Positions 1,266 through 50,410 of a DNA stretch of 64,000 nucleotides are shown piece by piece. Origin of the DNA: Actinomycetota bacterium (lineage in GTDB: Bacteria; Actinomycetota; Humimicrobiia; Humimicrobiales; Humimicrobiaceae); NCBI GenBank assembly GCA_051744345.1, contig JBNJCW010000003.1, positions 196 through 64,195 on the forward strand. Reading direction: 5' to 3'. Each line of letters opens with the position of its first letter. The stretch's first letter is position 1. Both the position numbers and the translations under genes were made by a program. The notes below the pieces were generated by a model that had not been told where the DNA came from, did not search any database, and saw nothing but the letters and a program-made list of their open reading frames with translations.

Positions 1266-2303
1266 CTAAACTAAAATATAATGTGCCCCCTTTTTCTTTC
1301 CTTTTAATTCTACAACTCCTAAATTTACCAACTTATTCATTTCTTTTAATGCAGCCTGCCGTGATACTCCGAACATACCAGCAATATCTGTAGATGTTGC
1401 TTTATCATTTTTTAGTATAAATTCTACAATATTCATTTGTCTCTCTGTAAGGGCTATTTGTCCTTTTTCCTTTAAATATTTAATATCTTTACTGAGTCCT
1501 ATTACTCTATCTGTTATTGCTTTAATGCTTACTGCTACCCCTTCAGTAAAGTATTCCAGCCATGCTGTAAGATCAATGCTTTTTTTATCAACACTCTCAA
1601 GTGCCTTATAATAACTTGCCCTATTACTATCATAGTAATCATCTAAAGCAAAAAATCTTTTGGTATCAAATCCCCTTTTATATAAAACAAGGGTCGCCAT
1701 AATTCTAGCTGTTCTACCATTTCCATCTACAAAAGGGTGAATCCTTACAATCTCATAGTGTGTAATTCCCCCATGTAAAACTGGATCAATTTCCAAAGTT
1801 TTATCTGAATTGCACCAGTTTAAGAAATTATTCAACAATAGTGGAACTTCATTAAAAGAAGGTGGTCTAAATACTACTTCACCTGTAATTCTGTTTCCTA
1901 CAACAACTTCACAATTCCGAAGTGAACCTTCGTACTCGGGACTTTCCAATGTTTCATTTGTTACTATTTTATGAATCTTAAGAAAATCTTTTTCTGTTAA
2001 GAACTCCTTCTTTACAAGATCGGGTATTATTTCCAACGCTTCAATGTAATTTAAAACTTCTTGTTTGTCTTTTCTCCTGACCATTATATCTCTACCATTT
2101 GCCAGATCACTTACTTCCTCAAAAGAAAGAGGATTCCCCTCAATAGCGGTAGATGAATGAGCACTTCTGATTAAAGCTTCTCTTCTCAATTTAACTTCCC
2201 ATTTTGGAATCAAAGGGGAGTTCATTATTATAGTTTTATTTTCTGCTATTAGTGTTAAATTTTTAACTATTTTATTTGTGTACTTAAAATTGGGCTTAAA
2301 CAT
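1266..2303 (-). CDS. Fic/DOC family protein (AMPylation-type Fic motif), with a C-terminal HTH-like tail
   Basis: 345 aa ORF containing HPFVDGNGRTAR, the canonical Fic motif HPFx[DE]GNGR. It overlaps the end of hsdM by 8 nt and sits between hsdM and hsdS. Confidence 0.8.
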   Translation of the reverse strand: MFKPNFKYTNKIVKNLTLIAENKTIIMNSPLIPKWEVKLRREALIRSAHSSTAIEGNPLSFEEVSDLANGRDIMVRRKDKQEVLNYIEALEIIPDLVKKEFLTEKDFLKIHKIVTNETLESPEYEGSLRNCEVVVGNRITGEVVFRPPSFNEVPLLLNNFLNWCNSDKTLEIDPVLHGGITHYEIVRIHPFVDGNGRTARIMATLVLYKRGFDTKRFFALDDYYDSNRASYYKALESVDKKSIDLTAWLEYFTEGVAVSIKAITDRVIGLSKDIKYLKEKGQIALTERQMNIVEFILKNDKATSTDIAGMFGVSRQAALKEMNKLVNLGVVELKGKKKGAHYILV

Positions 2304-4080
2304 CGTCTATCCCCAGTTCATTAAGATAATTTGCAATCTTTTTTTCATTCTCCGATAAATTTTGATTTATATTTTTTATATCTTTCCACTCACTAGCTAT
2401 ATCTATTTCTTCAACTTCTTCTTCTGGATAGACATATAGAGTCACATTGAGATTATAGTCATTTTCTTTTATCTTCTCTTTTTCTATAAGCTGGGAAAAT
2501 CCTTTTAATTCCCCATTATTCTTATATGCTTTTACTATTTTATCTATATTTTTCTCTCCCAGACAGTTAAGCTTTCTTACTTCTGGGTGGCTCTCATATT
2601 CTTCGCTGGCATTTATAAATTGAACCATACCCTTTTTAAATTCAGGTTTATTTTTGTTTAAAACAATTATGGCTCCTGGAGCTCCTGTATTATAAAAAAG
2701 CTTTTCTGGCAGAAGAATAATTGTTTCTATTAAATCATTTTCAACCATCTTTGATCTTATTACTTTTTCTTTGCCCATTCTAAACAGGCACCCATTATCT
2801 ATTACTACTCCGACTTTCCCCATTTCTTCCTCTGCTGATGCTAGCATATGCTGTATCCATGCCCAGTCTGCAGATTGTCTGGGAGAGAAACCAAAACTAA
2901 ACCGCTTAGACCAGAATTCTCCTTTTCTCAGAACTTCTTCATCGTATCCATCCTGATTCCATGGGGGATTTGCTATAACAATATCAAACGTTTCTATTTC
3001 ACCTGAATCATTTATAAATTTGGGAGAATTTAATGTATCTCCATAAGCAATTTTTGCATTTCTTATGTCATGAATGTTTAAATTCATTTTAGCTAGGGCC
3101 ATTGTTTTATGGTTTGCTTCCTGCCCATATAGAAAAAGCTTATTTGCAGAATCCTTCCCCAAGTTATCTTTTAAGTACCTGTATGAACTTATAAGCATCC
3201 CTCCCGAACCACAGGCAGGGTCATAAACACTCTGCCCTGGTTTTGGATCAAGCATTTCAACAATCAGTTTTATAACTTCTCTTGCTGTATATACCTCTCC
3301 TTCCTTAGCTTTCTGGGGGGCAAAATATCTTAATATCCATTCATAAGCATCACCAAGAATATCTGGAGAAACATTATGGAGTGACTTTTCACTGAAAAGT
3401 TCAATCAGTTGTCTTAGGATCTCGGCATTTTCTTTACTTGTTGTAAATTGAACAAAATCTATATTTTCAAATACAATTTTTAAATCTGAATTTGTATCAG
3501 CAATAGCTTTCATTGCAGCAGAAAAATTTTCTGGAATTCTTGCAGGATCTTTTTTTCTTAAATTATCCCATAAAAACTCTTCGGGAATATTATAGTCATG
3601 ATAAGCAGAATTTCTTGCTTCTTTTCTAGCTTCTTCTTTACTAAGACCATCAGCAATAGCTTCATCATATGCAGTTTTAAATTCTTTTTCCCATTTATCG
3701 CTCATTCTCTTATAGAAAAGAAGCACTAATATAAAGGTGTAATCAACTCTTGTTCTTATAAGATCTGCTGCAGATTTTAATATTCGTTCCAGCTCTCCCC
3801 TGGTTAATTTTTTCTTATCAAGTGACAGAGTATTAGAAATCATATCTTTCTTGCTTTTTAGTTTATAAATTCTTTTTCTGGCATCATCTGGATCAAACTC
3901 AACTTCAAGCATTCCTGCTTTTCTGAGCTCAGATAAAATTACCACAACTTCGTTTTTTGTATCTTTTATACCATTTATTCCTTGGTTAAGTTTGTTAGCT
4001 GCTTCCCCAAGAGGGAAGGGAGATGATTGAAATGATTGCCACAAGATGTCATATCTTTTATTGATCCAGTCTGGTAACAT
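2296..4080 (-). CDS. hsdM: Type I restriction-modification N6-adenine DNA methyltransferase HsdM
   Basis: 594 aa. It has the IANPPW (NPPW catalytic) motif, the SAM-binding DPACGSGGML motif and an N-terminal HsdM_N-like region. Confidence 0.9.
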   Translation of the reverse strand: MLPDWINKRYDILWQSFQSSPFPLGEAANKLNQGINGIKDTKNEVVVILSELRKAGMLEVEFDPDDARKRIYKLKSKKDMISNTLSLDKKKLTRGELERILKSAADLIRTRVDYTFILVLLFYKRMSDKWEKEFKTAYDEAIADGLSKEEARKEARNSAYHDYNIPEEFLWDNLRKKDPARIPENFSAAMKAIADTNSDLKIVFENIDFVQFTTSKENAEILRQLIELFSEKSLHNVSPDILGDAYEWILRYFAPQKAKEGEVYTAREVIKLIVEMLDPKPGQSVYDPACGSGGMLISSYRYLKDNLGKDSANKLFLYGQEANHKTMALAKMNLNIHDIRNAKIAYGDTLNSPKFINDSGEIETFDIVIANPPWNQDGYDEEVLRKGEFWSKRFSFGFSPRQSADWAWIQHMLASAEEEMGKVGVVIDNGCLFRMGKEKVIRSKMVENDLIETIILLPEKLFYNTGAPGAIIVLNKNKPEFKKGMVQFINASEEYESHPEVRKLNCLGEKNIDKIVKAYKNNGELKGFSQLIEKEKIKENDYNLNVTLYVYPEEEVEEIDIASEWKDIKNINQNLSENEKKIANYLNELGIDDV

Positions 4081-4721
4081 GGTTATAAACTACTTTCTAG
4101 CTAAATAATAATTTACATAAGTTTATTTTAATAAACTTATTTTATAAGTTTGAATTTTGAAAGTCAATACAAACTATGAAATTATTTATTCAAAAATCAA
4201 TGGACTCCTCAAGTAGGCAATAATGTAGTAAATAAATTTAAGAAGTCCTTTGACTATGGGAGTGATAGCTATATGGGAGTTATAAAAAATTTTTAAATTT
4301 GTTTTGTTTCTAAGTTTATGAGTCTAGTTGTATAAAATTTAAAAATACTTGACTGTGTAAACAAGTATTAGATGTACGGTAATCGCATGAAATTTGAATG
4401 GGCCCTGAAAAAATGGATGGTTAAAACAAAAATAGGAATACCTTTTGAAAAAATTGTTTTCCATTTCTCTCAAAGAATTTATGGGAAGTAGCAGACCTTC
4501 CATAACAAAAGAAATATCCAGAGCAAAGAATATATTTTTTAATAGTTGATGATTACATTTATTTAGTTCCTAATGTAAAAGAACAATCATTTTTAGAGAT
4601 AAATAACAACCCCTTTATTTTTACTACTAATCTTATTAATATGATTATATTAATTGAATTAGTAATATATAAATGCTAAGATTTTTTCAGGTTGATTTGT
4701 AAACATACGGATTAGGAAATA

Positions 4722-6092
4722 TTGTCATCCTTTACACAGGAGGAGAGGACCATGACCTTAAAGGAAAAAATGAGGCTCTATACAACCAAGACGGCCATCA
4801 AGGGGGCATTGAAGGTACTTCCCCATATATCTGATGAGAGGTGGCTTTCCCTGGTTAAAGGCAGGATTTACAAGCCAAAGAAAAAAAATGAAATGGATTT
4901 TTTGGAAAACCTGCTGGTAAGCTTAAAGAATGCAGTCCTGAATGCTCCCCCTAGTGTCAGGGAGAAAGTGGTTATGAACCTTATCAACAATGCCATGATC
5001 CAGGGCCAGCCCAAAAGGCATGCCTTCGCCGAAAAATACGGCATCAATCCCCCCAACCACCTGGTGATAAGCCCCACCATGGCATGTAACCTGAAATGTT
5101 TTGGCTGCTATGCCTGGAAGTACCCCAAAAAAGATGTCCTGCCCTATGATGTATGCAACCGGATAATAGATGAGGCCAATGATATCGGCATCTACTTCTT
5201 TGTAATAACCGGCGGGGAGCCTTTCGCCTGGGAACATATTTACGACTTCCTGGAGACCCATAACGACTGTTTTTTCCAGATATACACCAATGGGCAGCTT
5301 ATCGACCAAGAAGCAGCAGAAAGGCTTTCTGAACTGGGCAATGCCATCCTGTGCATAAGCGTGGAAGGGCTGAGGGAAGAAACCGAAGCCAGGAGAGGTA
5401 AAGGAAGCTGGGATAAAATAATGGAAGCTATGGACCTGCTTAAGGAAAATGGGGTGCTTTTCGGATATTCAGTTACTGCAGTCAGGAACAACAATGAATT
5501 AATAGTAAGTGATGAGTTTATTGATTTCTTTGTAGAGAAAGGTTGTTTTCTGGGTTGGTACTTTAACTATATTCCTACCGGTAAAGACCCTGACCTTGAT
5601 CTTATGCCCACCCCGGAGCAGAGGGATTACAGGAGAAGAAGGGTGCTGGAACTGAGAAAAACCAAAAACCTCATCCCCATTGATTTCTGGAATGACGGAC
5701 CCCTGGTCCACGGATGCATGGCTGGGGGAAAGAACTATTTCCATATCAATGTTAACGGTGACGTGGAGCCATGCGTATTCATCCACTTTGCCGCAGATAA
5801 CATAAAAAACAAAAGCTTAACCGAAGTGATCACTTCAGATTTCTTCAAAGAATTCAGGAAAAGGCAGATGCAGTCCGACAACCACCTTAGGCCCTGCTGC
5901 ATAATCGACAATCCCCATGTTCTCAGGGAGGCAGTTGCCCAGACAGGGGCATACACGACCCATGAAGGTGCAGAGACTATGGTAACCAGCCTTGCAAAAT
6001 CCCTGGATGAGTACGGTGAAAAATATAAGGAGATAGCAAATAAGGCATGGGCTATGGAATATGTTCCCAAAGAAGATGAGGAGGCGGTCTAA
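4722..6092 (+). CDS. Radical SAM domain protein with a SPASM/twitch-like C-terminal Cys motif
   Basis: 456 aa. It has a CNLKCFGC (CX3CX2C) cluster at about residue 123. Downstream, GCMAGGKNYFHINVNGDVEPCVF and RPCCIIDNP resemble the start of a SPASM auxiliary-cluster region. An AGGAG ribosome-binding site lies upstream at about 4739. Confidence 0.75.
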   Translation: MSSFTQEERTMTLKEKMRLYTTKTAIKGALKVLPHISDERWLSLVKGRIYKPKKKNEMDFLENLLVSLKNAVLNAPPSVREKVVMNLINNAMIQGQPKRHAFAEKYGINPPNHLVISPTMACNLKCFGCYAWKYPKKDVLPYDVCNRIIDEANDIGIYFFVITGGEPFAWEHIYDFLETHNDCFFQIYTNGQLIDQEAAERLSELGNAILCISVEGLREETEARRGKGSWDKIMEAMDLLKENGVLFGYSVTAVRNNNELIVSDEFIDFFVEKGCFLGWYFNYIPTGKDPDLDLMPTPEQRDYRRRRVLELRKTKNLIPIDFWNDGPLVHGCMAGGKNYFHINVNGDVEPCVFIHFAADNIKNKSLTEVITSDFFKEFRKRQMQSDNHLRPCCIIDNPHVLREAVAQTGAYTTHEGAETMVTSLAKSLDEYGEKYKEIANKAWAMEYVPKEDEEAV

Positions 6093-6239
6093 ATAGATAC
6101 TGCACCCAGGCCCAGGAGGTTTCTTCACCTTAAATATGTTTACAGGATCTTCTTTCTGGAAGATTTCCTAAAAAGGATATGGTTTGACTGCCGTTCATGC
6201 GGGCAATGCATCCTAAGCACTACCGGTTTCGTCTGCCCC

Positions 6240-6602
6240 ATGAGGTGCCCTAAAAAGTTAAGGAACGGCATCTGCGGGGGTTCAAGTAAGGGCACGTGCG
6301 AGGTTGACCGTACCAAAAGATGCGTTTGGGAAGAAATATATGAGGGATCTAAAAGCCTGGACAGGATCCGGCTTCTGGATAAATTCCAAAAACCGGTAGA
6401 CTCTAGACTGCATAATACATCTTCGTTTGTAAACATGTTTGACAGAAGGATAGAAGGGATGAATATCATAGCAGAGGGAAAAGGCAGTAAGGTATGCCAG
6501 CTTATGAAGGTATTATCGCACCTGGTAAAAATAAGATGGAGAAAATTTCTGCATCCTTCAAGGTATCACCAGAAATACCCCAATCATTACCTGGGCGTAT
6601 AA
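6240..6602 (+). CDS. Cys-rich ORF with an MTHFR C-terminal-like motif (CPxxCPK...NGxCGG). It is in the same frame as the radical SAM gene and directly after that gene's TAA stop.
   Basis: ATG at 6240 gives MRCPKKLRNGICGGSSKGTCEV.... The frame is open back to 6093 with no ATG, giving ...RIWFDCRSCGQCILSTTGFVCPMRCPKK. It is separated from the radical SAM ORF only by the TAA at 6090-6092. Confidence 0.35.
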   Translation: MRCPKKLRNGICGGSSKGTCEVDRTKRCVWEEIYEGSKSLDRIRLLDKFQKPVDSRLHNTSSFVNMFDRRIEGMNIIAEGKGSKVCQLMKVLSHLVKIRWRKFLHPSRYHQKYPNHYLGV

Positions 6603-6638: not shown

Positions 6639-6986
6639 CTATTTTTCCTTTTCTGCGCCCTCTTCTACCAGATGGCATATGCCTGCCACGTATTTTATAT
6701 CCAGAACAAAGACGATACCCTCTCCGGGCTTGTTCAGGTTTCCTGCCTCAAGGATGGCATCCAGAACCTTTTTTGTAATTTCACAGTTTACCACAGTCAG
6801 CAGTATCTCCTTTTCCGGCTCAATAGGTATCCCCATAAGTTTGGATTTTTCATGTATGCCGGAGCCCCTTGCCGGAATTACAGTTCCCCCCTCTGCTCCC
6901 GCTTCCTTGGAAGCGGCCAGTATGGTTTCAGAAAAACCCCTTTTTACAATGGTAACAATCAGATCATGGTCTTCATAACATATCAT
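6639..6986 (-). CDS. P-II-like (GlnB superfamily) small regulatory protein
   Basis: 115 aa. IVTIVKRGFSETILAASKEAGAEGGTVIPARGSG aligns with the P-II fold, including a T-loop-like GxxVxxxRGxG. It lies directly downstream of two DUF1538-like membrane proteins. Confidence 0.55.
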   Translation of the reverse strand: MICYEDHDLIVTIVKRGFSETILAASKEAGAEGGTVIPARGSGIHEKSKLMGIPIEPEKEILLTVVNCEITKKVLDAILEAGNLNKPGEGIVFVLDIKYVAGICHLVEEGAEKEK

Positions 6987-6999
6987 TTATATAAACCTC

Positions 7000-7731
7000 C
7001 TACTCCTGTTTCCTTTCATTGATCCTGTAAAGCAGCCCCAGTATAACCACCGAAAGGATGGGGGCCAGGGCTACCAGGGAAATAAGTCCGAATCCGTCAG
7101 TTATAGCATCCCTTCCCTCCATTATATTAGCAGCCCCCACCGAAATAGCCATTATAAAGGTTACCGTCATGGGCCCGGTTGCCACTCCTCCCGAGTCAAA
7201 AGCAATAGCGGTAAAGGTGGGGCTTATAATTTTAGCCAGGGCTAAAGCCACCACATATCCCGGCAGTATGAAATAGGCCAGGTGGATACCCCAAAGGGTT
7301 CTGGCCATGGCCAGGGCAATGGATGCGGCAACCCCCAGGGAAATGGTAAACAGCATGGTCTTTTCCTGAATGTACCCGCTGGAAGCATTTTCCACTTCCT
7401 GGCAGAGTACCCTTACCGCTGGTTCAGCAATGGTTACCGTAAATCCCAGTATAAAACCTATGGGAATGAGAATCCACCTGTGGTTTAAGCTTCCCAGTAC
7501 TTCCCCTATCGTATTTCCGGTGGGAAGAAAACCTATATGCACACCGTAGAGAAACATAACCAGGCCAACAAAGGTTAGAAACATTCCCTTCATTATATTT
7601 TTTGCTTCCGTCCTAGGCAGTTTTAAAAAGAAAATCTGGTATATCAAAAAGATTACCATAAGCGGTATCAGCGCTATGGCTACCTCTATGATTATATCCA
7701 GGAGGCTGCGGAGGGCAAAAAAATCTTTCAT
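7000..7731 (-). CDS. DUF1538-like polytopic membrane protein
   Basis: 243 aa hydrophobic protein, paralogous to its neighbour, with an overlapping start and stop. Confidence 0.5.
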   Translation of the reverse strand: MKDFFALRSLLDIIIEVAIALIPLMVIFLIYQIFFLKLPRTEAKNIMKGMFLTFVGLVMFLYGVHIGFLPTGNTIGEVLGSLNHRWILIPIGFILGFTVTIAEPAVRVLCQEVENASSGYIQEKTMLFTISLGVAASIALAMARTLWGIHLAYFILPGYVVALALAKIISPTFTAIAFDSGGVATGPMTVTFIMAISVGAANIMEGRDAITDGFGLISLVALAPILSVVILGLLYRINERKQE

Positions 7732-8423
7732 CCGTATACCACTCCCAGAAGCATCACTGATATTACCGGCCCTATGGAAGCCAGCCCGATTAACCCAAAC
7801 CCATCAGCTATGCTGGAATTTCCGCCCAGTACTGAGGCAGTGCCCAAACCCAGGGATATGATGAAGGGGACAGTAACCGGGCCGGTGGTTACCCCTCCCG
7901 CATCAAAGGAAACAGGCAGAAAAGAAGCCGGAGTAAAAAATGATATAATGAAAACCACCAGATAACCCCCAAAAAGAAGGTAAGCTATGGGTACGCCCTT
8001 AATAATCCTGAACATGGCCAGAAGAACAAACAATCCAACCCCTGCTGCAATCACCGGTACCAGCATGTACCTGGTTATGGTGCCTCCTGAAACAATATCC
8101 ACCTGCTGGGATAGGACACGCACGTCCGGTTCAGCCACGGTTACCGAAAACCCCATTACAAATGCTATAACCAAAACCAGTATGGCTGACCCTTTCTTGG
8201 GAGTCTCCGCGCCTATCATCTCCCCGATGGGAATAAGCCCTATCTTTATTCCCCTCATAAATAAAAAGAAACCCCCCACAACCAAGAATGCTCCGAATAA
8301 AAACCTCAAAAATTCTATGGCAGGCATCTTTATGAGTGTGAATTGAAGAATAGTTACCGCTATTATTACCGGCCCTGCCGTCCTTAATATCTCCAGTATT
8401 ATTTCCTTATGCCTGGATAACAA
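7728..8423 (-). CDS. DUF1538-like polytopic membrane protein (paralog)
   Basis: 231 aa hydrophobic protein. Its stop overlaps the start of the next gene by 4 nt. Confidence 0.5.
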   Translation of the reverse strand: MLSRHKEIILEILRTAGPVIIAVTILQFTLIKMPAIEFLRFLFGAFLVVGGFFLFMRGIKIGLIPIGEMIGAETPKKGSAILVLVIAFVMGFSVTVAEPDVRVLSQQVDIVSGGTITRYMLVPVIAAGVGLFVLLAMFRIIKGVPIAYLLFGGYLVVFIISFFTPASFLPVSFDAGGVTTGPVTVPFIISLGLGTASVLGGNSSIADGFGLIGLASIGPVISVMLLGVVYG

Positions 8424-8594: not shown

Positions 8595-10715
8595 CTAGAA
8601 ATGAAACAGCCTTCCAGATAGGTCTATTACCAGTATTGCGGTTTCAATGGAAACCACACCTATTAGCTTTATCAGTATATTCATGGAAGGCCCGGCGGTA
8701 TCCTTTAAGGGGTCTCCAACCGTATCCCCGATTACTGATGCTGCATGTTCAGGTGTGCCGCTTTTGCCTTCCTCTTCAATCTTTTTCTTGGCATTATCCA
8801 TGGCCCCGCCGGCATTGGTCATAAATATCGCCTGGCCGAAGCCTGAAAGCAGTGTACCTATTATAAGGGCTACCACTCCGCCCGGGCCCAGCAGTATTCC
8901 CACTATCACCGGTATGGTAAAAATCAGTATGCCCGGCACAATAATTCCCCTCTGGGCAGCCCTGGTTACAATGGTAATAAACGCTTTGGGGTCTCCCTTG
9001 CCCTTTCCTGCCATTATGTCTTTTATCTGGCTTCTGGCTTCAACCACCACCTTGTTGGCTGCCCTTCCTACTGCTCCCAGAAGAAGGGAGGTAAAAAGGA
9101 AGGGAAGGATTACCCCTACAAAAAGGCCAGCAAGTATCCTGGGGTCTTTCATAAAATCAAGCACCACCACTACATCAAACATCTCTATCTTGGAAAAATA
9201 TGCCTGGCCCAGTACCAGTGCGGTTATGGCCGCACTTCCGATAAGCAGCCCCTTTCCGATGGCCGCGGTGGTATTTCCTACCGCATCAAGCTTGTCGGTG
9301 GTCTTTCTTACCTGGGGTGGCAGTTCAGCCATCTCCGATATGCCTCCCGCATTATCCGCAATAGGCCCGTAAACATCAATGGCTATAACAAACGGGGATG
9401 TGGAGAGCATGGCTACTGCAGCAATAGCCACCCCGTAGAGCCCCATCTGGTAATTCTCGGTCCCTCCGGATATAAAGAAGCTAAAAAGCATTATAACTAT
9501 GATGGTTAGCGCAGGCAGAATGGTACTTTCCATTCCGTAAGCGATTCCGCTTACCACCAGAGTAGCCGGCCCTGATTTGGCGCTTTCTGCTATATTCCTG
9601 GTGGCCCTGTATTTGGCATCGGTATAGATAAGGGTAAAAAGGCCTATAAGGAATCCGGCGGCAAGGCCCCCTATGGAGGTATAGAAAAGGAAATTGTAGC
9701 CGGTGCCCATAATAAAGCGAACCGCAAAGAAAGCAAGTATTACCGTAGCCACCACGGTTATAAGAAGGCCCGAAAGTGTGGTAGAGGTAAGCAGGTTAAC
9801 CGTAGCGCTTTCCTTGTACCTCCCCACTATGGTTTTAATTATAAAGATAGCGATTATGGAGGCAAAAACGCCTGCGGTAGCTAAAATCATGGGCAGCACT
9901 ATGCTCTCCAGAATCAGGGGCGAATTCCTGAAGGCAAGGAAACCCAAAAACATGGAAGCTATAATAGCCCCCACCCAGGACTCGAAAGCATCCGCCTTCA
10001 TTCCTCCCACATCGCCTACATTGTCTCCCACATTATCGGCTATGGTGGCAGGGTTTCGGTAATCATCCTCCTTTAGCCCCGATTCCACCTTGCCCACATA
10101 ATCTGCGCCCATATCTGCAGCCTTGGTGAATATGCCTCCGCCTGTCCTCATGAAAAATGCAGCAAAGCTGGCACCGATTATAAAGGTTATAAGTACGGTC
10201 ACCACTTCATTTAAAACTTCTGCCTGGCCGGCGGCTGATCTGCCGTACCACCAGTAAAGGAGGTTGAACCAGAAGGCGGTATGAAAAAGGGCTACTGTAG
10301 CCAAAAGCAGGCCGGAAGAAGAAGCAGCGGTAAATGCTATATTCATTGCCGCCCCCAGCCCCCTTTCCTTGGCCGCATGGGTTACCCTGGAATTGGCAGC
10401 GGTAGAAATCAACATCCCCATATATCCTATAAGCAGGCTAAATCCCATACCGGTGGCAAAAGCAGGTATGGAGGCAAAGCTTAAGTAACCGAACCATACC
10501 ATCACCCCGAATATAGCAGCTAACACTACAAAGAATATGGATATGACCTTGAGCTGCTGGTTTAAGTATGCCCTACTTCCCTCAGATATGGCATTAGAAA
10601 TTTCTATCATCCTTTTGTCTCCCCTGCTGTGTTTGCTGACCAGGTACGCGAAAATTATGGCCAGCACCAGGGAAACAAAGGCTCCGATGAACGGCAGTAT
10701 CCTAATAAATAACAC
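8595..10715 (-). CDS. hppA: Membrane-bound proton/sodium-translocating pyrophosphatase (V-PPase)
   Basis: 706 aa polytopic protein with the DNVGDNVGD and GDTVGDPLKDT signatures. Confidence 0.9.
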   Translation of the reverse strand: MLFIRILPFIGAFVSLVLAIIFAYLVSKHSRGDKRMIEISNAISEGSRAYLNQQLKVISIFFVVLAAIFGVMVWFGYLSFASIPAFATGMGFSLLIGYMGMLISTAANSRVTHAAKERGLGAAMNIAFTAASSSGLLLATVALFHTAFWFNLLYWWYGRSAAGQAEVLNEVVTVLITFIIGASFAAFFMRTGGGIFTKAADMGADYVGKVESGLKEDDYRNPATIADNVGDNVGDVGGMKADAFESWVGAIIASMFLGFLAFRNSPLILESIVLPMILATAGVFASIIAIFIIKTIVGRYKESATVNLLTSTTLSGLLITVVATVILAFFAVRFIMGTGYNFLFYTSIGGLAAGFLIGLFTLIYTDAKYRATRNIAESAKSGPATLVVSGIAYGMESTILPALTIIVIMLFSFFISGGTENYQMGLYGVAIAAVAMLSTSPFVIAIDVYGPIADNAGGISEMAELPPQVRKTTDKLDAVGNTTAAIGKGLLIGSAAITALVLGQAYFSKIEMFDVVVVLDFMKDPRILAGLFVGVILPFLFTSLLLGAVGRAANKVVVEARSQIKDIMAGKGKGDPKAFITIVTRAAQRGIIVPGILIFTIPVIVGILLGPGGVVALIIGTLLSGFGQAIFMTNAGGAMDNAKKKIEEEGKSGTPEHAASVIGDTVGDPLKDTAGPSMNILIKLIGVVSIETAILVIDLSGRLFHF

Positions 10716-30972: not shown

Positions 30973-32427
30973 ATGAATAATAGATTAAATAGAATAAGCC
31001 AGCACCTGAAAAACCCTCAGAATACAGGCCAGATAAAAGATGCGGATGCCGCCTCACAGGCAGGCTCAGCCTCCTGCAGGAACCTGGTAAAGTTCAGCGC
31101 TCAAATAAAGAAAAATACCATAGAGGATATAAGGTTTAAGGCTTTCGGCTGCGACTGGACCATAGCCTCTGCCAGCTACATTACTGCCCTGGCCAGAGGA
31201 AAAGGCCTCTGGGATGCAGCCAAAATAAGCATAGAAGACATCCAGCTTTATTTCGGCGCCATCCCCCGGCAGAAAATTCAGGCCGCCGCCTCTGTTATTG
31301 ATGCCTTTTCCGGGCTTATCTCAAGCTATGTATCCAAGAACACAAAAAACCTTTACCCCCTGGATTCAAACAGGGTCGCAGTAGCCATGAGCGGCGGAAT
31401 TGACAGCTCTGTTTCAGCTAAGATCCTGAAAGATAAAGGATATGATATCTTTGGGCTGACCATGAAGATTCTCCCCGATGCCCATGATTTCGAAGGCCAG
31501 GATAAGACCTGCTGCTCACCAACCGACATACGCCTGGCCAGAGAAGTTTGCTCCCATCTGGGTATCCCCCATTTTGTAATAGACCTTGTAAGCCAGTTTA
31601 AGCAAACCCTAATAGACGGTTTTTTAAACGAATACCTTCAAGGAAGGACCCCCAACCCCTGCGTGGACTGCAATAAATATATCAAGTTCGGGCAGCTTTT
31701 AGGAAAAGCTTTCATGCTGGGGGCAGCACATATGGCCAGCGGCCACTACTGCATACTGGAGAAAGCATCCGGGGACAGCCTGGCTATAAGGAAAGCCGTT
31801 GACCGTACCAAGGACCAGAGCTATATGCTGTGGAGACTCAGCCAGGACCAGCTCGAGCATATAAAATTTCCGCTGGGAAAATTCCACAAGCAAAAAATAA
31901 AGGATATGGGGAAAAGGTATTTTCCCTTTCTTGGAGAAAAACCCGAAAGCCAGGACATATGCTTTATCGGGGAGAAAGGATACCACCAGCTGCTCTCAGG
32001 TTACAGCATAGGTGAAGGAAAAATAGTCAATGGGCAGGGCAAAATACTGGGCACCCACAAGGGATACCCCTATTATACCATCGGCCAGAGAAAAGGCCTG
32101 GGCATAAGCCATAACAGGCCTCTGTATGTAAAAAAGATAATACCATCCGAAAATATTATTGTGGTTGGAGAAAAACAAGAGCTTTTGCAAAAGGAATTTA
32201 AGATTGGGGATATAAATTTTATCTCCGGAAAACCTCCAGCCGCAAGTTTTAATGCTCAGGTAATGATAAGGTATAAATTTGACCCTGCGCCAGCGGTTAT
32301 AAGAATGTCAGGCAAAAAAACAGCAATATGCATATTTGACCGGCCCCAGCCTGCCATTACCCCCGGGCAGTCAGCAGTTTTTTACCAGAATGATTTACTG
32401 CTGGGAGGAGGAATCATAGTTAAATAA
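30973..32427 (+). CDS. mnmA: tRNA 2-thiouridylase MnmA with an N-terminal IscU/NifU-like domain of about 125 aa
   Basis: 484 aa. Residues about 10-115 align with IscU (HLKNPQNTG..., [15 protein letters not shown]). Then come the PP-loop [15 protein letters not shown], the [12 protein letters not shown] CxxC and the [10 protein letters not shown] catalytic-Cys regions of MnmA. Confidence 0.8.
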
Positions 32428-43504: not shown

Positions 43505-44425
43505 ATGGATAAACCCGGATACGCTTTTTTTAATGGTAAGATTGTACCCATAAACCAGGCCAAGGTGGATATAAGAACCAATTCCTTACAGTATGGTACT
43601 GCTGTTTTTGAAGGAATAAGAAGTTACTGGAACCAGCAGGCGAAAAAAAGCTACATCTTCAGGATGGAAGATCACTTCAAGCGTTTTGCCGAAAGTGCTA
43701 AGATTTTAATGATAGAGCTGAAATACTCCATCGGGCAGTTATCTGAGATAACCATTGAACTTTTGAAGAAAGAAGGATACAGGGAAGATTCCTATATAAG
43801 GCCGTTTGCCTATAACAGCGGGCTGAACATAGGCCCCAAGCTGGTAGGTAACCCGCAGGATGTATTTATATACAGCATCCCCCTTGGAGATTATTTGGAA
43901 ACCAGCAAACCAATACATGTCTGTACCTCCTCCTGGACCAGGATCAGCGATAACAGCATCCCTCCCAGGGCCAAGATATCCGGGTCCTATGTTAACGCTG
44001 CTTTACAAAAGACAGAAGCCCTGCTTAACGGTTTTGATGAAGCAATTGTGCTGACCTCTGACGGCCAGCATGTCAGTGAAGGCAGTGCCATGAATATATT
44101 CATGGTTAGAAACGATACCCTGGTTACTCCCCCTATTGTAGATGACATACTTGAAGGGATAACCAGAAACTCGATTATAGAAATTGCTGACAATGAGCTG
44201 GGCCTGGAAGTGATACAGAGATCAATAGACCGCACGGAGCTATACACCGCCCATGAATTGTTTTTCTGCGGAACCGGCGCACAGATATCACCAATTGGCT
44301 CTGTTGACAAAAGGACTGTAGGTGAAGGCAGCATGGGGAAAATAACCAGAAAGCTGCAGGACCTTTATTTTAGGATAGTAAAAAATGAAATGGAAAAATA
44401 TTCCTCCTGGTGCACGGAAGTTTAA
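43505..44425 (+). CDS. ilvE: Branched-chain amino acid aminotransferase (class IV)
   Basis: 306 aa. Features are FFNGKIVP...QYGTAVFEGIRSY, the PLP-lysine region and a class IV fold. Confidence 0.85.
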   Translation: MDKPGYAFFNGKIVPINQAKVDIRTNSLQYGTAVFEGIRSYWNQQAKKSYIFRMEDHFKRFAESAKILMIELKYSIGQLSEITIELLKKEGYREDSYIRPFAYNSGLNIGPKLVGNPQDVFIYSIPLGDYLETSKPIHVCTSSWTRISDNSIPPRAKISGSYVNAALQKTEALLNGFDEAIVLTSDGQHVSEGSAMNIFMVRNDTLVTPPIVDDILEGITRNSIIEIADNELGLEVIQRSIDRTELYTAHELFFCGTGAQISPIGSVDKRTVGEGSMGKITRKLQDLYFRIVKNEMEKYSSWCTEV

Positions 44426-47400
44426 GGCATACAGAAATCCCTGTAGCCGCAATAACTGCATGATTTACCCCTATGGCGGTTAAATCGGCCAGCATTTATG
44501 CACTCAATCGCAGAGAGCAAAATGTCTTTAAAATCCGCAACAGCCTCCGGCTTAAAATGGTATTCGGAAACCGACAGATCTTCCATATAAAAAAGGCAGG
44601 CTTTGATTCGAAAGATACTGCACCCGTAAACATCCGAACAGGCCATGGCATAAGCTTTAAGTTGATTTATGTGGGTTGGGTTTTCCTTGAGCGGCTTTTT
44701 TGAAACCTTGTAATCAATTATCCTGTATTTTGCGCTTCCAAGATATTCGAGCCTATCTATTTTGGAAGTAATGATAAAATCATTAAGTTTATGGTAAATT
44801 AGCTGCTCCAGCCAGATCTTTTCTGTACCGGATAAATTAAAAAAAACACTTTGCATGTATCCCTCAGCATAGGGCTTTAAATTTTTTTGTTTGATGGCTG
44901 CCAGCAGCCTGTCCTTTCCCAAATCCTTATACATTACCTTAAGCCTGGTTATTTTTTCTATCAGGGAATGCACCTCTTCACCTTTTTTAAGGGATTGGCT
45001 GTATTTTTCGGGTATATTATGGATGTATTTGCATTCATAGAGTACCGGACACCGCACATAGGTCAAAAGGGAGGTAAGTGAGAAAACTCTCTGGCTCCTC
45101 TTTAGGCTGTCCCGGGCAGGGATATCTGTTTTTTGGGCTGCCGGCTTGACTCTGGCAGAATCTCTCAATAAATTTTCATTTGCTTTCTCCCAGTCTATAT
45201 CCGGGATATTGATTTTTTTGCCTCCTCCCAGGAATTTATAAAAATCATCTCTTGCAGCTTGCTTGTCTTCGCCATTAAAACCCATTGACTCAATACATCT
45301 TAAGCTCTCATTATCCAGTACTTTCAGATCTTTGGAGGCCAGCGCATCCATTATAAAGGGCACTATCTTTTTTTCGGACTTTCCTTGTGCCTGGTCATAA
45401 TGGTTCCGGTAGTCGCTGTGTGAGAGCACCAGCAGCCTTTTAGCTCTGCTGCAGGCTACATAAAATATCCTCCTTTCTTCCTCGGTCTTCATCTTCTTTA
45501 GCTCTTCTTTAAATGCTTTCTGGCTGGTGTATTCTTTTTTCCTGGCCCATACTTCATTATCCTTCCTGAGCTCGGCAGGCATACTGTATTTTTGGCTATC
45601 CCCCCTGCCCAGATAATCGTTTCTCCACAGCATAGGAAGAAAGACTGCGTCAAACTCCAGGCCTTTGGCTGCATGTATGCTCATTACCTTGACCGAATCC
45701 TCACCAGACAGCTCCAGTGATTCCGGTCCCTCAAAATCAGTTTTGGCAACCTCCCGGAGATAGGTATTAAAACTCTCTAGACTGCTCTCCCTGAAATTGT
45801 CCTCAAAATCATTGGTGATCTTTATCAAAGCCTCAATATTCTTAATCTTTTTTTTACAGCCCACATTAAAACTTGATTTAAGCTCATCCCTTAAGCCGCT
45901 ATGTTCATATATCAAGCTTACCAGCTCTCTCAGCCTCAGGCTGTATGATTTCCGGATATAATACTTAAGCTCGTTTAAAAAAGAAGATAACCTGTCCTTA
46001 GCTTCTTTGCTGATATGGGGATTGTGTATGCTTTTTTCTATTCCCCCTATCAGTCTGACCGGCTTGCCGTTTTTAAAATCCCTTTTAACGAAGAAAAGGT
46101 CCCGGTCACAAATCCTGTACCTATCCGATTTTAAAAGGTAAAACAGATATATTTCATCATACAGGTCATAGATTACATACAGCCAGGAGATTATGAAGAG
46201 TATCTCTTTTTCAAAGTAGAAGCTCTTACTGCCCACAATCTCATATTTTAAGCCACTGAGGTCCAGGTACCTGGTAACGGCATCAAATTTTTTCCGCCTG
46301 CAGAGTATGGCTATATTTTTCAGCCTCATCCCCTGTTCCCTGAGTTCTTTTATGGTGCCGGCAATCCTTTCAGCTTCCTGTTCATGGGTGGGACAGTAAA
46401 AAAATACTGCTTCTGATAGGGGGCTTTTTGGAGCTGGCTTTAACATTTTATCGAAACGGTTCTCATTAGCGGATATTATATTATTTATAACTCCTATAAT
46501 ACTCTTGCCCGACCTGAAATTAGTGGTCAGGTAGAAGTCCGAAACCCTGCTGCCCCTGAATGCTTCCCACCGGTGGAAATTGAGTATGTTCTCCACACAG
46601 GCGCCCCGGAAAGCATATATGCCCTGGTCGTCATCTCCAACCACCATTATGTTTACCTTTCGGTTATTCAATAGAGCCAGCAGGTATGCCTGGGCCATAT
46701 TCGTATCCTGGAACTCATCAACAAAAATATACCTGTACCTTTCCGTGTATTTATCTCTTACGGAAACATTGCTTTTCAGAAGGTTATAAGGGAGGTATAC
46801 CTGGTCCTGATAATCAATACAGTTGCCCTCCTTCTTTAGCTCCTCGTATTGGCGGTAGATAAAACAAAGCTCCCCCTGAAGGCTGACAGCCTGCTTTTCT
46901 TCTCTTAAAAGCGCAGCACTCTTATAATCTCCAAGGTACTCAAGGTAGTTTTCTACATAGTTTTCAAGATCCGGAGGGGTTATGAGGTTGTTTTTCAAGG
47001 TATCTATATAGGAGAGTATCTCCTGTACCGTTTTGCCCGGGGTCTTTCCTATATCCAGATACCTGAACTTATAATTTTTAAATATATCATATATAATCTG
47101 CCAGGTTTCTGCGCTGCTTAGCACCCTGAAGTCTTTACCCACCGATAGCTGGAGGCTGTTTTCCTTAACTATCTGGTTGCCAAAGGAATTAAAAGTATAA
47201 ATATCTATCCGGTCCGGCGAAATATCCTGTATGTTTTCTCTTATTCTGACCCTCATATTATCTGCTGCATTCCTGGTAAAGGTCAGGGCAAGAATTTCAG
47301 AGGGCCGGCACAAAGACTGCCTTAGCACACTTATTATTCCCCTGGTTATGACCCAGGTTTTCCCGGAGCCCGCACATGCAATTACCCTTTTAATATCAGC

Positions 47401-47481
47401 TTTGCCCTCTATTACCGCCTGCTGCTCTTCTGTTGGTTTTATCTCATCCATAGAACCCTTCACACAGTATTTTAAAATCAC
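44422..47481 (-). CDS. UvrD-type helicase fused to a C-terminal PD-(D/E)XK nuclease with a 4-Cys (AddB/Cas4-like) cluster; AddAB/AdnAB-like subunit
   Basis: 1019 aa. The Walker A is ACAGSGKTWV and motif II is FVDEFQDTN. The C-terminal region has CPVLYEC ... IIDYK ... CSYCGYRDFC. Confidence 0.75.
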   Translation of the reverse strand: MILKYCVKGSMDEIKPTEEQQAVIEGKADIKRVIACAGSGKTWVITRGIISVLRQSLCRPSEILALTFTRNAADNMRVRIRENIQDISPDRIDIYTFNSFGNQIVKENSLQLSVGKDFRVLSSAETWQIIYDIFKNYKFRYLDIGKTPGKTVQEILSYIDTLKNNLITPPDLENYVENYLEYLGDYKSAALLREEKQAVSLQGELCFIYRQYEELKKEGNCIDYQDQVYLPYNLLKSNVSVRDKYTERYRYIFVDEFQDTNMAQAYLLALLNNRKVNIMVVGDDDQGIYAFRGACVENILNFHRWEAFRGSRVSDFYLTTNFRSGKSIIGVINNIISANENRFDKMLKPAPKSPLSEAVFFYCPTHEQEAERIAGTIKELREQGMRLKNIAILCRRKKFDAVTRYLDLSGLKYEIVGSKSFYFEKEILFIISWLYVIYDLYDEIYLFYLLKSDRYRICDRDLFFVKRDFKNGKPVRLIGGIEKSIHNPHISKEAKDRLSSFLNELKYYIRKSYSLRLRELVSLIYEHSGLRDELKSSFNVGCKKKIKNIEALIKITNDFEDNFRESSLESFNTYLREVAKTDFEGPESLELSGEDSVKVMSIHAAKGLEFDAVFLPMLWRNDYLGRGDSQKYSMPAELRKDNEVWARKKEYTSQKAFKEELKKMKTEEERRIFYVACSRAKRLLVLSHSDYRNHYDQAQGKSEKKIVPFIMDALASKDLKVLDNESLRCIESMGFNGEDKQAARDDFYKFLGGGKKINIPDIDWEKANENLLRDSARVKPAAQKTDIPARDSLKRSQRVFSLTSLLTYVRCPVLYECKYIHNIPEKYSQSLKKGEEVHSLIEKITRLKVMYKDLGKDRLLAAIKQKNLKPYAEGYMQSVFFNLSGTEKIWLEQLIYHKLNDFIITSKIDRLEYLGSAKYRIIDYKVSKKPLKENPTHINQLKAYAMACSDVYGCSIFRIKACLFYMEDLSVSEYHFKPEAVADFKDILLSAIECINAGRFNRHRGKSCSYCGYRDFCMP

Positions 47482-50410
47482 AGTTCCGGCAGGAAAAGTA
47501 TTCCTGCCGGGGCGAAAAATTCTCTTTTTTTATCTCTCCTATAATTCCACCTAAAAGCATCCTCAAATCCTCTTCCCTGTAATAGGATGGCGGAAGTTCA
47601 GCTACCGGATTATCGCTGGAGAGGGAAATATATTTCAGCCTGATATTCTTATCCTTCAGAAAGTCAAGGCTGCTGCTGCAGGCCAGGGCCATCCTGTATA
47701 CCTTGAGCTGTATTTCTTCCCGTAAATCCCTGTCATAATATTTTTTTGAACCGGATTTGTAGTCTATAAGTTCAATCTCGTGGTCAGAGATCAGGTTTAT
47801 CTGGTCTATTCTCCCCTTTATTGTTTCTGAACCAAGCTTAAAGCTGAATTGCTGCTCAATAATTGATGACGCCGGATGGGGAGGCATAAGTTTTTGATAA
47901 AAATTCTTAAAATCAGCCAGTGCCTTTTTCCTATGCTCTTCCTTTAATGCCCTGAAACCAAAATCTGTCTGCCCGAACAGCTTATCTATGATGGCTTCCA
48001 TCTTCTCCCAGCTGTAATGCTTCTGCTGAAAAAACTCCTGGATTATCCGGTGGTAAAGGATGCCTATTACCAGGCTCAGGCTCTCAGGGGTCTCCGCCTT
48101 AAAATAGTAGCTGAATTTATACCTAAGGGGACACTGTCGGTAGGTATCCAGGGCACTGTACGAAAAGGATTGCTTAAATACATTAAAGGGGTTATTTTCA
48201 TTAACCGTAAACTGGATATTGTTCCACCATTTTTGCGGAGGATAATAATTATTCAGAAAAGCAATATATTTTTTAAGCTTATACCTTGAATATTTTAAAC
48301 CTGACATTTTCTTTGCGCTCAATACCAGGGCCCTCTTTCTGACCTGCCAGCAATTTGAGGAATCCGGGGTAAAGCGGCGTTTCTTCTTCTTAACCGGCAA
48401 GGCTGTGTTTTTCAAATCCAAAAAAAACGGGGAATGCTGCCTGGTCCGGTTAGAGGTTACAAACAAATATTTTTTTGCCCGGGTTAATCCCACATAAAGC
48501 AGCCTCCTCTCATCCTCCAGGTGCCTCTCCTTTAGTTCCTCCCTTTCATACTTTTTGTTTTGGCTAAAATAATTGAAAAGCTGGATATCGTAACTCTGGG
48601 GAAAATGGAAAGTTGCAGGTATATATTCCATATTGATAAAGGGTATGAATACCGCTTCAAACTCATGGCCCTTGCATTGATGGAAACTTAAAAGCCTTAC
48701 GCTGTCACTAGATGCAGGGGCAGTGCTTTTCTCTATCTCTTCTAAGAAATTGCTCTCCAGCATCCGGTCAAGAAAACTGAGGTATGATTCAATGCCTGTA
48801 TCCTCATTTGCCTCACTGAAGGCTTTGACACTGGCAAGAAAATCGCTTGGCCCGCTCCAATCCATATCTTTTTTTGCAGCCAGACCCACCCTGGCATCCT
48901 TTGCAAGGTTTAAAATAAAATCAAATACATCGCCTTGTCTCAATTTTTCAAATTCTTCTACAGCCTGCAGAAAACGCTTAATTTTAATAAGCTGCGGACC
49001 TTTGTCTTTTCCGCAAACCCTTGTTTTTAAAAAATCCAATATATTCGAAAAGCCGGTATCGGCCAAATATTCCCTGTATATTTTCTTAAAATAAAGGGGA
49101 TCTATCTCCAACACTGATGAAAGCAGGATGCTTTCCGCCAGAGAATCAACATCTTTATTTTCGGCTAACGGCCTTCTGAAAAGCCTTAAAAAATTCAACA
49201 TATACCTTACCATATTGTTGTCCAGAACAGTTCTGGAGCCGCTTCGCTGGAAAGGTACCCGGTTGTGGTTTAAGGCATTTTCAAGGATATGGGTTTCATA
49301 ACCCAGTCCCTTAATTATTATAGCCATTTCACCAAACTTTGAATTCCCAGCCCTAAGTTCCTTTATTTTCGCGCATACAAAGCTTGCCTCCTCAAGCATA
49401 TTAGGAAAATCTTTTACCCCGACCTCCCCGCCCGAGAAAGAAGAAACTGATTTTTTAGCCATCCTGTATTTGTTCTTGGCTATAAAATTTGAAGCAAGCT
49501 TATTTATATCCCTGCTGTTTCTAAAATTATGCTTAAGCCGTATTATATTTTTTGTCCTGCCATAAACCCGGTTGAAGCTCTCAGACATTGAGCCCCTGAA
49601 GCTATAGATTGATTCATCATCATTGCCGAAGAATATACAGTTATCCCTGGTTACAAGATCCACTATTTCCAGCTGTGCCCGGTTTAATTCCTGAAACTCG
49701 TCAACTATCACATAGTCATATCTCTTGCGGTATTTTTCCCTGATGTCATTGCTGTGCCCAAGCAGCCTGGCGGTATCCTGGAGAAGCAGCCCGTAATTGT
49801 AAAGGCCAAGCTGGCCAAGCTTTTTCATGTACCTGGAATATATCCCTGCAATTTCAGATAGGGTTCTGCTGAAATAAGGGCTGAGCCTGTCAGCCACCAC
49901 TTTCGGGGTAAGCAGGCTCTCCTGGGCACGGAGTATAAAATCAAAAACCTCCTGGACATAGCTATTGGCCGTAAAGCTGCTGCCCTGGACATATCTTGTG
50001 CTGACCGGATAATTCTTCTCATCCAGGCTGGACATAATTTCCGCCAGCAGGTTCCACTGCTGGGTGGAATTCAGGACAATAATATCTTCATCAAGGTTTT
50101 GAGGATTTCCGTTTATATTATCTGCAAGCCCGTATACCTTCAAATCCCTTAAAAAATCCAGGCAAAATGAATGAAAGGTACTTATGGGTATTTCCAGGGA
50201 GCTTTTTGGTGCTGATGCGGCACTCTCCTCCCTTATGATTTTGGCCCACCTGCGGTTAAAACAGAAAACAAGTATCTTCCCGGCATCTACTTTCTTTTCC
50301 TGGGTTAACCAGGTTAACACGCCTACCAGCATACGGCTTTTGCCCGTACCCGGAGGACCCACAATACAAACGCTGCCATCCTGGATTGCCTGTTTTAGTT
50401 TATTTAGCAT
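47444..50410 (-). CDS. Second UvrD-type helicase-nuclease subunit with a 4-Cys nuclease domain; partner of 44422-47481
   Basis: 988 aa. The Walker A is VGPPGTGKS and motif II is IVDEFQELN. The C-terminal region has YRQCPLRY ... IDYKSG ... CRNCDFKILC. Its 3' end overlaps the downstream gene by 38 nt. Confidence 0.75.
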   Translation of the reverse strand: MLNKLKQAIQDGSVCIVGPPGTGKSRMLVGVLTWLTQEKKVDAGKILVFCFNRRWAKIIREESAASAPKSSLEIPISTFHSFCLDFLRDLKVYGLADNINGNPQNLDEDIIVLNSTQQWNLLAEIMSSLDEKNYPVSTRYVQGSSFTANSYVQEVFDFILRAQESLLTPKVVADRLSPYFSRTLSEIAGIYSRYMKKLGQLGLYNYGLLLQDTARLLGHSNDIREKYRKRYDYVIVDEFQELNRAQLEIVDLVTRDNCIFFGNDDESIYSFRGSMSESFNRVYGRTKNIIRLKHNFRNSRDINKLASNFIAKNKYRMAKKSVSSFSGGEVGVKDFPNMLEEASFVCAKIKELRAGNSKFGEMAIIIKGLGYETHILENALNHNRVPFQRSGSRTVLDNNMVRYMLNFLRLFRRPLAENKDVDSLAESILLSSVLEIDPLYFKKIYREYLADTGFSNILDFLKTRVCGKDKGPQLIKIKRFLQAVEEFEKLRQGDVFDFILNLAKDARVGLAAKKDMDWSGPSDFLASVKAFSEANEDTGIESYLSFLDRMLESNFLEEIEKSTAPASSDSVRLLSFHQCKGHEFEAVFIPFINMEYIPATFHFPQSYDIQLFNYFSQNKKYEREELKERHLEDERRLLYVGLTRAKKYLFVTSNRTRQHSPFFLDLKNTALPVKKKKRRFTPDSSNCWQVRKRALVLSAKKMSGLKYSRYKLKKYIAFLNNYYPPQKWWNNIQFTVNENNPFNVFKQSFSYSALDTYRQCPLRYKFSYYFKAETPESLSLVIGILYHRIIQEFFQQKHYSWEKMEAIIDKLFGQTDFGFRALKEEHRKKALADFKNFYQKLMPPHPASSIIEQQFSFKLGSETIKGRIDQINLISDHEIELIDYKSGSKKYYDRDLREEIQLKVYRMALACSSSLDFLKDKNIRLKYISLSSDNPVAELPPSYYREEDLRMLLGGIIGEIKKENFSPRQEYFSCRNCDFKILCEGFYG

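Follow-up and report, generated by a model that had tools for sequence, protein, structure and literature searches.

The window analysed here is a 64,000-nucleotide (nt) stretch of contig JBNJCW010000003.1 (assembly GCA_051744345.1) from an Actinomycetota bacterium of the family Humimicrobiaceae. At 4722-6602 it carries a gene for a radical S-adenosylmethionine (SAM)/SPASM protein, followed directly by an open reading frame (ORF) for a cysteine-rich, MetV-like protein of Pfam family PF12225. The two ORFs share one reading frame with a single TAA codon between them, as a preceding sequence-only reading of the window had noticed. The upstream ORF, which starts at ATG 4752 (or TTG 4722), is closed by TAA 6090-6092, and the same frame is open again from 6093 to a TAA at 6600-6602 that is directly followed by a second TAA. 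Translation of the downstream ORF from 6093 gives IDTAPRPRRFLHLKYVYRIFFLEDFLKRIWFDCRSCGQCILSTTGFVCPMRCPKKLRNGICGGSSKGTCEV.... That reading was also right in taking ATG 6240 for the sole in-frame ATG of the downstream ORF and in placing it inside the cysteine motif. In addition, GTG, TTG and ATG are all absent from this frame between 6093 and 6240; four conserved cysteines (Cys33, 36, 39 and 48) precede the ATG, and four (Cys52, 61, 69 and 77) follow it. The antisense ORF that had been said to make gene calling ambiguous is present as well. Because a Pfam search with it gave zero matches and the strand facing it carries a conserved coding frame under selection, it is considered spurious. The coordinates are collected in Table 1.

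Table 1. Features of the radical SAM/MetV-like locus, in window coordinates.
Feature	Position	Strand	Basis or remark
GGAGG Shine-Dalgarno sequence of the radical SAM gene	4739..4743	+	8 nt before ATG 4752, read from the sequence
Radical SAM/SPASM gene, 446 aa, MGM0365073.1, complete	4752..6092	+	Pfam, orthologs, exact NCBI protein
GAGGAGG (GGAGG 6080-6084) in the last radical SAM codons	6078..6084	+	Possible Shine-Dalgarno sequence for the MetV-like ORF
TAA, judged the genuine stop of the radical SAM gene	6090..6092	+	Family-typical C-terminus; TAA of relative L001 one residue later
ATA, proposed near-cognate start of the MetV-like gene (inferred), abutting the stop (TAA-ATA)	6093..6095	+	
MetV-like PF12225 gene, 169 codons plus stop	6093..6602	+	Pfam, homologs, alignment, purifying selection
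ATA, NCBI start of MGM0365074.1 (141 aa, MWFDC...)	6177..6179	+	Probably 28 codons short
Only in-frame ATG, internal Met50, not a start	6240..6242	+	Family-invariant
Antisense ORF, 109 aa	6140..6469	-	Considered spurious
Convergent P-II-like gene, ending the two-gene plus-strand unit	6639..6986	-	Pfam P-II, E 3.9e-09

The 446-amino-acid (aa) product of the upstream gene matched the Pfam profiles Radical_SAM (E 1.2e-23) and SPASM (E 9.2e-09) and has a CX3CX2C motif at residue 112 (CNLKCFGC). Its own SPASM domain is complete, covering profile positions 1-63 of 67 at residues 322-382. A database search with this protein returned more than 5,000 matches, and the best 120 orthologs listed are 442-455 aa long and 70-82% identical to it. 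An acidic tail, ...AW.EEY.P.EEE..AV, is shared by all of the orthologs whose C-termini were read (11/11); the orthologs end in ...AWAEEYEPEEEEEEAV and the window protein in ...AWAMEYVPKEDEEAV. Judged by the ortholog lengths and the common acidic C-terminal tail, TAA 6090 is the native stop of the radical SAM gene. The protein had no NCBIfam equivalog above its cut-off, and a PDB sequence search returned generic radical SAM matches only. Homologs of Mss, a radical SAM membrane-spanning lipid synthase, have been reported from metagenome-assembled genomes (MAGs) of Humimicrobiia (PMC11868695), and the highly conserved window protein could be one of them. The neighbours of the radical SAM orthologs are variable and include mnmA, infC, a glycosylase gene and others. 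Upstream of one ortholog (80% identity; L047:1-882), and divergent from it, lie two methylenetetrahydrofolate reductase (MTHFR, PF02219) fragments of 107 aa and 159 aa, possibly the remains of a metF that was split or has degraded beside a member of this radical SAM family.

The downstream ORF matched PF12225 (MTHFR_C/DUF5981) with E 3.9e-27 and 94.2 bits (cut-off 23) over profile positions 14-93 of 95, the domain lying at residues 25-103 of the translation (about 6165-6401). This match confirmed the likeness to the MTHFR C-terminal domain that had been proposed from the letters alone. The second likeness proposed there, to the distal half of a SPASM domain, was not borne out, as the ORF gave no match to SPASM (E<=1), and a complete SPASM domain is already present in the radical SAM protein. 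The 169-aa translation has 39 homologs, nearly all of 177 aa, with a query coverage of 96-99%. In a 14-sequence alignment, all eight cysteines (Cys33, 36, 39, 48, 52, 61, 69 and 77) are invariant and P5, P7, K9, H12 and Y17 are invariant or nearly so, and E23 and K27 are also among the family-conserved residues of the 5-28 stretch. An NCBIfam search with the ORF gave no match, a PDB sequence search with its family profile gave zero matches, and the AlphaFold2 model built from a 14-sequence alignment was too poor for use (predicted local distance difference test score, 43.6; predicted template modelling score, 0.30). The ORF belongs to a family of about 177 aa from Humimicrobiia-like Actinomycetota, with eight cysteines that presumably bind FeS clusters or zinc.

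MetV is the small subunit of the MetVF-type methylenetetrahydrofolate reductases of acetogens. It has been described as an FeS- and zinc-containing protein with two predicted [4Fe-4S] clusters (PMC8760232). The window ORF resembles MetV in its PF12225 core with a CxxCxxC...CPxxC...CGG...C...C array. Moreover, metF lies immediately upstream of the 177-aa gene in the orthologous loci L015 and L023-L027, and this adjacency supports a MetV-like role for the family; in L026, for example, metF at 2999-3892 is followed by the metV-like gene at 3947-4480. The family differs from MetV in having unrelated neighbours in most orthologous loci (biotin carboxylase, electron transfer flavoprotein (ETF) and nuclease genes), and also in a P.P+K..H....Y N-terminus and a family-specific C-terminal tail of ~65 aa, both outside the Pfam model. 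No MetF (PF02219) match was found anywhere in the 64-kb window. For the window protein, a MetV-like role is putative. In most other Humimicrobiia-like genomes, L006 and L011 among them, the MetV-like gene stands after genes of the pyruvate/oxaloacetate carboxylase type and for biotin carboxylase, and in L006 it precedes the ETF beta/alpha genes.

The survey of start codons in the family covered 36 genome loci, 6 metagenome loci and L045. Upstream of the conserved PKPRK..H....Y block, ATG (GTG in L006) is present at 42 loci, and among the surveyed loci a canonical start is missing only in the window and in one relative, L001 (Logan SRR11917416). A non-ATG start conserved among orthologs, which the sequence-only reading had considered as a possible outcome, was therefore absent. 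L001 has the same gene order as the window, with amino-acid identities of 86% for the radical SAM protein and 78% for the PF12225 protein. Its radical SAM stop is TAA 1518-1520, one residue later than in the window. Its PF12225 frame, shifted by 2 relative to the radical SAM frame, is open from 1481 and holds no ATG, GTG or TTG before the internal Met. ATA 1517-1519 and ATT 1520-1522 overlap the L001 stop, giving ATAA and TAATT as near-cognate analogues of the ATGA and TAATG overlaps, and a GGAGG is located at 1502-1506. Like its closest ATG-bearing relatives (P0002, P0017 and L040), L001 retains a Lys-rich N-terminal extension of ~19 residues, and its codons aligned with the ATGs of these relatives read AAT and AAG. 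This extension is missing from the window, which shows a deletion of ~57-60 nt relative to L001 directly after the radical SAM stop, and the conserved core begins four codons after the TAA. The deletion incidentally brought both genes into one frame, so the single-frame arrangement of the window is, on this comparison, a lineage-specific accident and not a conserved feature. Nor does the common frame carry statistical weight, because two adjacent genes have a 1 in 3 chance of sharing a frame and those of L001 do not share one.

Seven look-ups of radical SAM ortholog loci, one genome scan and one metagenome scan found the radical SAM to MetV-like order only in L001 and in a degraded allele (L056-58); within the flanks fetched, no MetV-like ortholog other than that of L001 has the radical SAM gene upstream. 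The degraded allele is near-identical to L001 in its flanks (95-99% nt identity) and has lost 482 nt of the MetV-like ORF. Its radical SAM gene lacks the 5' 438 nt, is cut to 281 aa and lies next to a Y2 transposase gene. At L056:4001-5030 (also in L057 and L058), ~17 codons from the beginning and ~13 from the end of the MetV-like ORF remain, and the deletion scar bears a C9 run. A PIN/VapB pair follows downstream, as it does at the L001 locus.

A profile search of 1.84 billion representatives for PF12225 relatives gave 1,329 sequences, and 10 multi-domain proteins among the top 150 were tested with Pfam. None of the 10 had a radical SAM partner: six carried MTHFR or B12-binding domains (one with an additional pterin-binding domain) and four had no partner domain. 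The PF12225 orthologs stand alone at ~177 aa, and the radical SAM orthologs are complete at 442-455 aa with their common tail. By this comparative evidence the radical SAM and MetV-like ORFs are two separate genes, neither a split fusion nor a fusion made by readthrough. Comparison with orthologs, the check that the sequence-only reading had proposed for a fusion, showed two separate genes throughout. Of the four explanations offered there for the in-frame TAA, a non-ATG start is favoured, and the other three, namely a sequencing or assembly error, a nonsense mutation that split a fusion gene and low-level readthrough, were not supported.

Selective constraint on the MetV-like ORF was assessed from the proportions of synonymous (pS) and nonsynonymous (pN) differences. 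Between the window and L001, pS was 0.78 (saturated) and pN was 0.129 overall. Across the 45 codons before ATG 6240 pN was only 0.046, and across the 24 conserved-block codons 6105-6176 before ATA 6177 it was 0.069, with a pS of 0.79. Furthermore, at 52 positions with at least 95% conservation in 31 other orthologs, neither ORF was changed (0/52 in the window, 0/52 in L001), and pN to three outgroups was 0.25-0.30 for both, which does not set them apart from the ATG-bearing sisters (L002, L039 and L040). Relaxed constraint in the form of elevated pN, lost invariant residues, frameshifts or stops was not detected in the window and L001 ORFs. Sequence divergence thus shows the MetV-like ORF under continued purifying selection, with its N-terminal region included.

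Since P5, P7, K9, H12 and Y17 are invariant or nearly so, translation must start at or before 6105. The in-frame triplets available up to this point are ATA, GAT, ACT and GCA, and ATA 6093 is the only initiator of translation table 11 among them. GGAGG 6080-6084 lies exactly 8 nt upstream of ATA 6093, and this GGAGG-N8-start geometry is common to the radical SAM ATG (4739/4752) and the junction (6080/6093). AUA 6093 is most likely the start codon of the MetV-like gene, as judged from sequence conservation and spacing. No promoter-like site was found ahead of the MetV-like ORF inside the radical SAM gene, and the junction RNA had no more structure than shuffled sequence (z 0.80).

The infC gene of the related contig L054 (L054:2200-2725) serves as a positive control for near-cognate initiation in this group. 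It has no canonical start at its true N-terminus, where GGAGG-N8-ATC at 2219 leads into IVKRIRLNEEIRVP..., and the gene caller began at an internal ATG at 2261 (154 aa), truncating the gene. The radical SAM protein of L054 (P0046) is 79% identical to that of the window. The window resembles near-cognate starts such as that of infC in that a start codon of table 11 stands 8 nt behind a strong GGAGG. It differs from them in having no known autoregulatory logic and in that the non-AUG state in the MetV-like family is limited to two genomes. In E. coli, initiation at AUA, AUU, AUC and CUG amounts to about 0.02-3% of that at AUG (10.1101/063800).

Both genes of the pair are represented by exact NCBI proteins (MGM0365073.1 and MGM0365074.1) from an Actinomycetota MAG contig. 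MGM0365074.1, a methylenetetrahydrofolate reductase C-terminal domain-containing protein, is annotated with 141 aa from ATA 6177. By alignment, this model probably omits 28 residues, most of which are conserved in the family and under purifying selection. Two further candidates were rejected. An AGGAGG at 6114-6119 was considered as the Shine-Dalgarno sequence of an internal start; no near-cognate codon lies at usable spacing from it, and L001 reads CCAAAAAAG there. A frameshift from ATG 6136 (+1 frame, 16 nt after this AGGAGG) was dismissed because its frame stops after 11 codons and L001 has no equivalent ATG.

Taken together, we consider it reasonably probable that the locus is a two-gene unit in which the radical SAM gene ends at its normal stop and a separate, still functional MetV-like gene follows, most likely started at AUA 6093 with translational coupling. 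The alternatives differ in how they treat the stop, the start and the state of the second gene. Programmed readthrough of the UAA would join the radical SAM and MetV-like proteins into one fusion product in the window, and the same outcome in L001 would take a -1 frameshift. It would make sense of two ORFs in one frame with zero spacer, and of a gene pair kept adjacent in two diverged genomes. The single in-frame stop of the window is indeed what readthrough and split-fusion genes look like, but, unlike in such genes, the frame relation changes between the window and L001, fusion was absent from the homologs examined, each family is complete by itself and there is no stimulatory RNA structure. 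The frames differ in L001, where a search of the overlap 1481-1517 found no -1 slippery site, that is, no slippery heptamer. All of the best 120 radical SAM orthologs listed end at 442-455 aa, and the fusion occurs in 0/10 of the multi-domain PF12225 representatives tested. The minimum free energy of the junction RNA, -18.2 kcal/mol, compares with a shuffle mean of -20.8 (z 0.80). UAA is also the least leaky bacterial stop codon. We therefore regard readthrough as extremely improbable. An error in base calling or assembly, which could hide a true TAA-ATG (6095 G) or turn a sense codon into the TAA, is hardly more credible. The source is a MAG contig and a single base separates ATA from ATG, yet a canonical start is also missing from L001, which stems from an independent sample and a different assembler, the TAA falls exactly at the family-typical radical SAM C-terminus, and the site lies outside homopolymer runs.

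Two further alternatives accept the stop and question the start. If the gene were functional and started further downstream, at ATA 6177 as annotated by NCBI, ATC 6147, CTG 6156 or ATG 6240, the Pfam match beginning only at residue 25 would be accounted for, and ATC 6147 and ATA 6177 do match ATT and ATA in L001. Such a start is nevertheless improbable given the family-wide conservation of residues 5-28 (P5, P7, K9, H12, Y17, E23 and K27) and their low pN relative to pS (0.069 vs 0.79). None of the candidate codons has a GGAGG at workable spacing, and ATG 6240 would drop four of the eight invariant cysteines. A more serious alternative, though still an unlikely one, is a young pseudogene whose start was lost independently in the window and L001 lineages after relocation and which is no longer translated, disruptions having not yet accumulated. 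The lack of any ATG, GTG or TTG before the internal Met in both genomes would follow from this, as would the AAT and AAG that L001 has at the ATG positions of its relatives and the deleted N-terminal extension of the window. The L056-58 allele, with its 482-nt internal deletion and truncated radical SAM gene, points the same way, and recent relaxation would be invisible to pairwise pN/pS. Against this stand the two independent recent start losses that it requires alongside intact ORFs of 169 and 189 codons in AT-rich DNA, an unparsimonious combination. In addition, 0/52 invariant residues are altered, the nonsynonymous outgroup distance is no higher than in the ATG-bearing sisters, and constraint is strong specifically upstream of every alternative start. 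The L056-58 allele has lost radical SAM sequence too, which speaks of loss of the whole locus and not of decay of the MetV-like ORF specifically.

A history consistent with the two-gene unit can be proposed. The MetV-like gene would first have come to stand right after the radical SAM gene, in the ancestor that the window and L001 share. The loss of its canonical ATG would have followed, leaving AAT and AAG in present-day L001 at the positions of the relatives' ATGs. In the window lineage, the ~57-60 nt deletion would then have removed the variable N-terminal extension and merged the frames by accident. The MetV-like protein would now be made from the near-cognate AUA 6093, helped by the GGAGG in the radical SAM tail, and ribosomes that end at the abutting UAA would reinitiate at the AUA by termination-reinitiation coupling, with a low expected output.

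Termination-reinitiation needs overlapping or nearly zero-spaced genes (PMC10666635). The locus is like known coupled pairs in this respect, its stop and start being 0 nt apart (TAA-ATA) in the window and overlapping (-4 or -1 nt) in L001, and in that the Shine-Dalgarno sequence of the MetV-like ORF lies inside the upstream gene. It is unlike them in that the restart codon of the window is not AUG, GUG or UUG and in that the radical SAM/MetV-like pairing is young, rare and not a conserved operon. The zero-distance stop and start with an upstream GGAGG suggest translational coupling. We infer an AUA start, coupling and low expression; initiation at AUA 6093 would be infrequent, with help from the Shine-Dalgarno sequence and from ribosomes that finish at the neighbouring UAA. 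Sequence comparison shows what the two genes are, that they are separate, that the radical SAM stop is native, that two diverged lineages lack a canonical start, and that purifying selection continues and extends to the N-terminal region.

Several points weigh against this interpretation. The GGAGG encodes part of the conserved acidic tail (..EDEEAV), which is present in radical SAM orthologs without a downstream partner. The motif was therefore in place before the two genes became neighbours. It made the junction a permissive landing site but does not independently support a start. AUA is a poor initiator, against which initiation factor 3 discriminates. L001 contains several AT-rich near-cognate codons, and the homologous start is not fixable there. 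The measures of constraint integrate the whole divergence and are blind to recent independent inactivation in each lineage. Finally, the arrangement is present in two genomes only, and the locus is, to judge from its loss in L056-58, dispensable in some strains.

A more far-reaching proposal is that the radical SAM and MetV-like proteins form a coupled heteromeric pair, with the AUA setting a low, fixed stoichiometry and the MetV-like protein acting as a dedicated electron-transfer partner. This would be comparable to the role of MetV toward MetF, and we put it forward as a speculative and rather improbable extension. The pair persists in two genomes whose synonymous sites are saturated with differences, and both genes are lost together in the L056-58 allele, observations with which the proposal is loosely consistent. 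Abutting or overlapping gene pairs are also enriched for complex subunits (PMC10666635).

Other parts of the window were recorded alongside this locus. Immediately upstream of the radical SAM promoter region, on the minus strand at 1266-4080, a Fic/DOC-HTH gene overlaps the gene for a type I restriction-modification methylase (HsdM) at the latter's 3' end. On the other side (6639-8423, minus strand), the P-II-like gene (115 aa) is located downstream of two tandem DUF1538 membrane-protein genes, in an arrangement that looks like a conserved module; an H+-pyrophosphatase gene (8595-10715) lies further upstream of the DUF1538 pair on the same strand. At 30973-32427 on the plus strand, a 484-aa protein combines a NifU-like N-terminal scaffold domain with a full MnmA tRNA 2-thiouridylase; L046 has a plain mnmA after its radical SAM ortholog. 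Two overlapping minus-strand genes at 44422-50410, each of ~1,000 aa, encode UvrD-helicase and PD-(D/E)XK nuclease domains and, from this domain content, look like a helicase-nuclease pair of the AddA/AddB or AdnA/AdnB type.

For annotation, the locus represents neither recoding nor a broken fusion, and the conserved N-terminus is probably truncated both in the 141-aa model deposited at NCBI (start ATA 6177) and in the 120-aa model of the gene caller (start ATG 6240). The locus provides a clean natural example of purifying selection on a gene that has no AUG, GUG or UUG start in two well-diverged genomes and that lies right where one gene stops and the next begins. Experimental confirmation would make it valuable for studying how far termination-reinitiation relaxes start-codon stringency. 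Moreover, the 177-aa MetV-like family of Humimicrobiia, mostly unlinked from metF, may merit attention in the C1 metabolism of anaerobic Actinomycetota.

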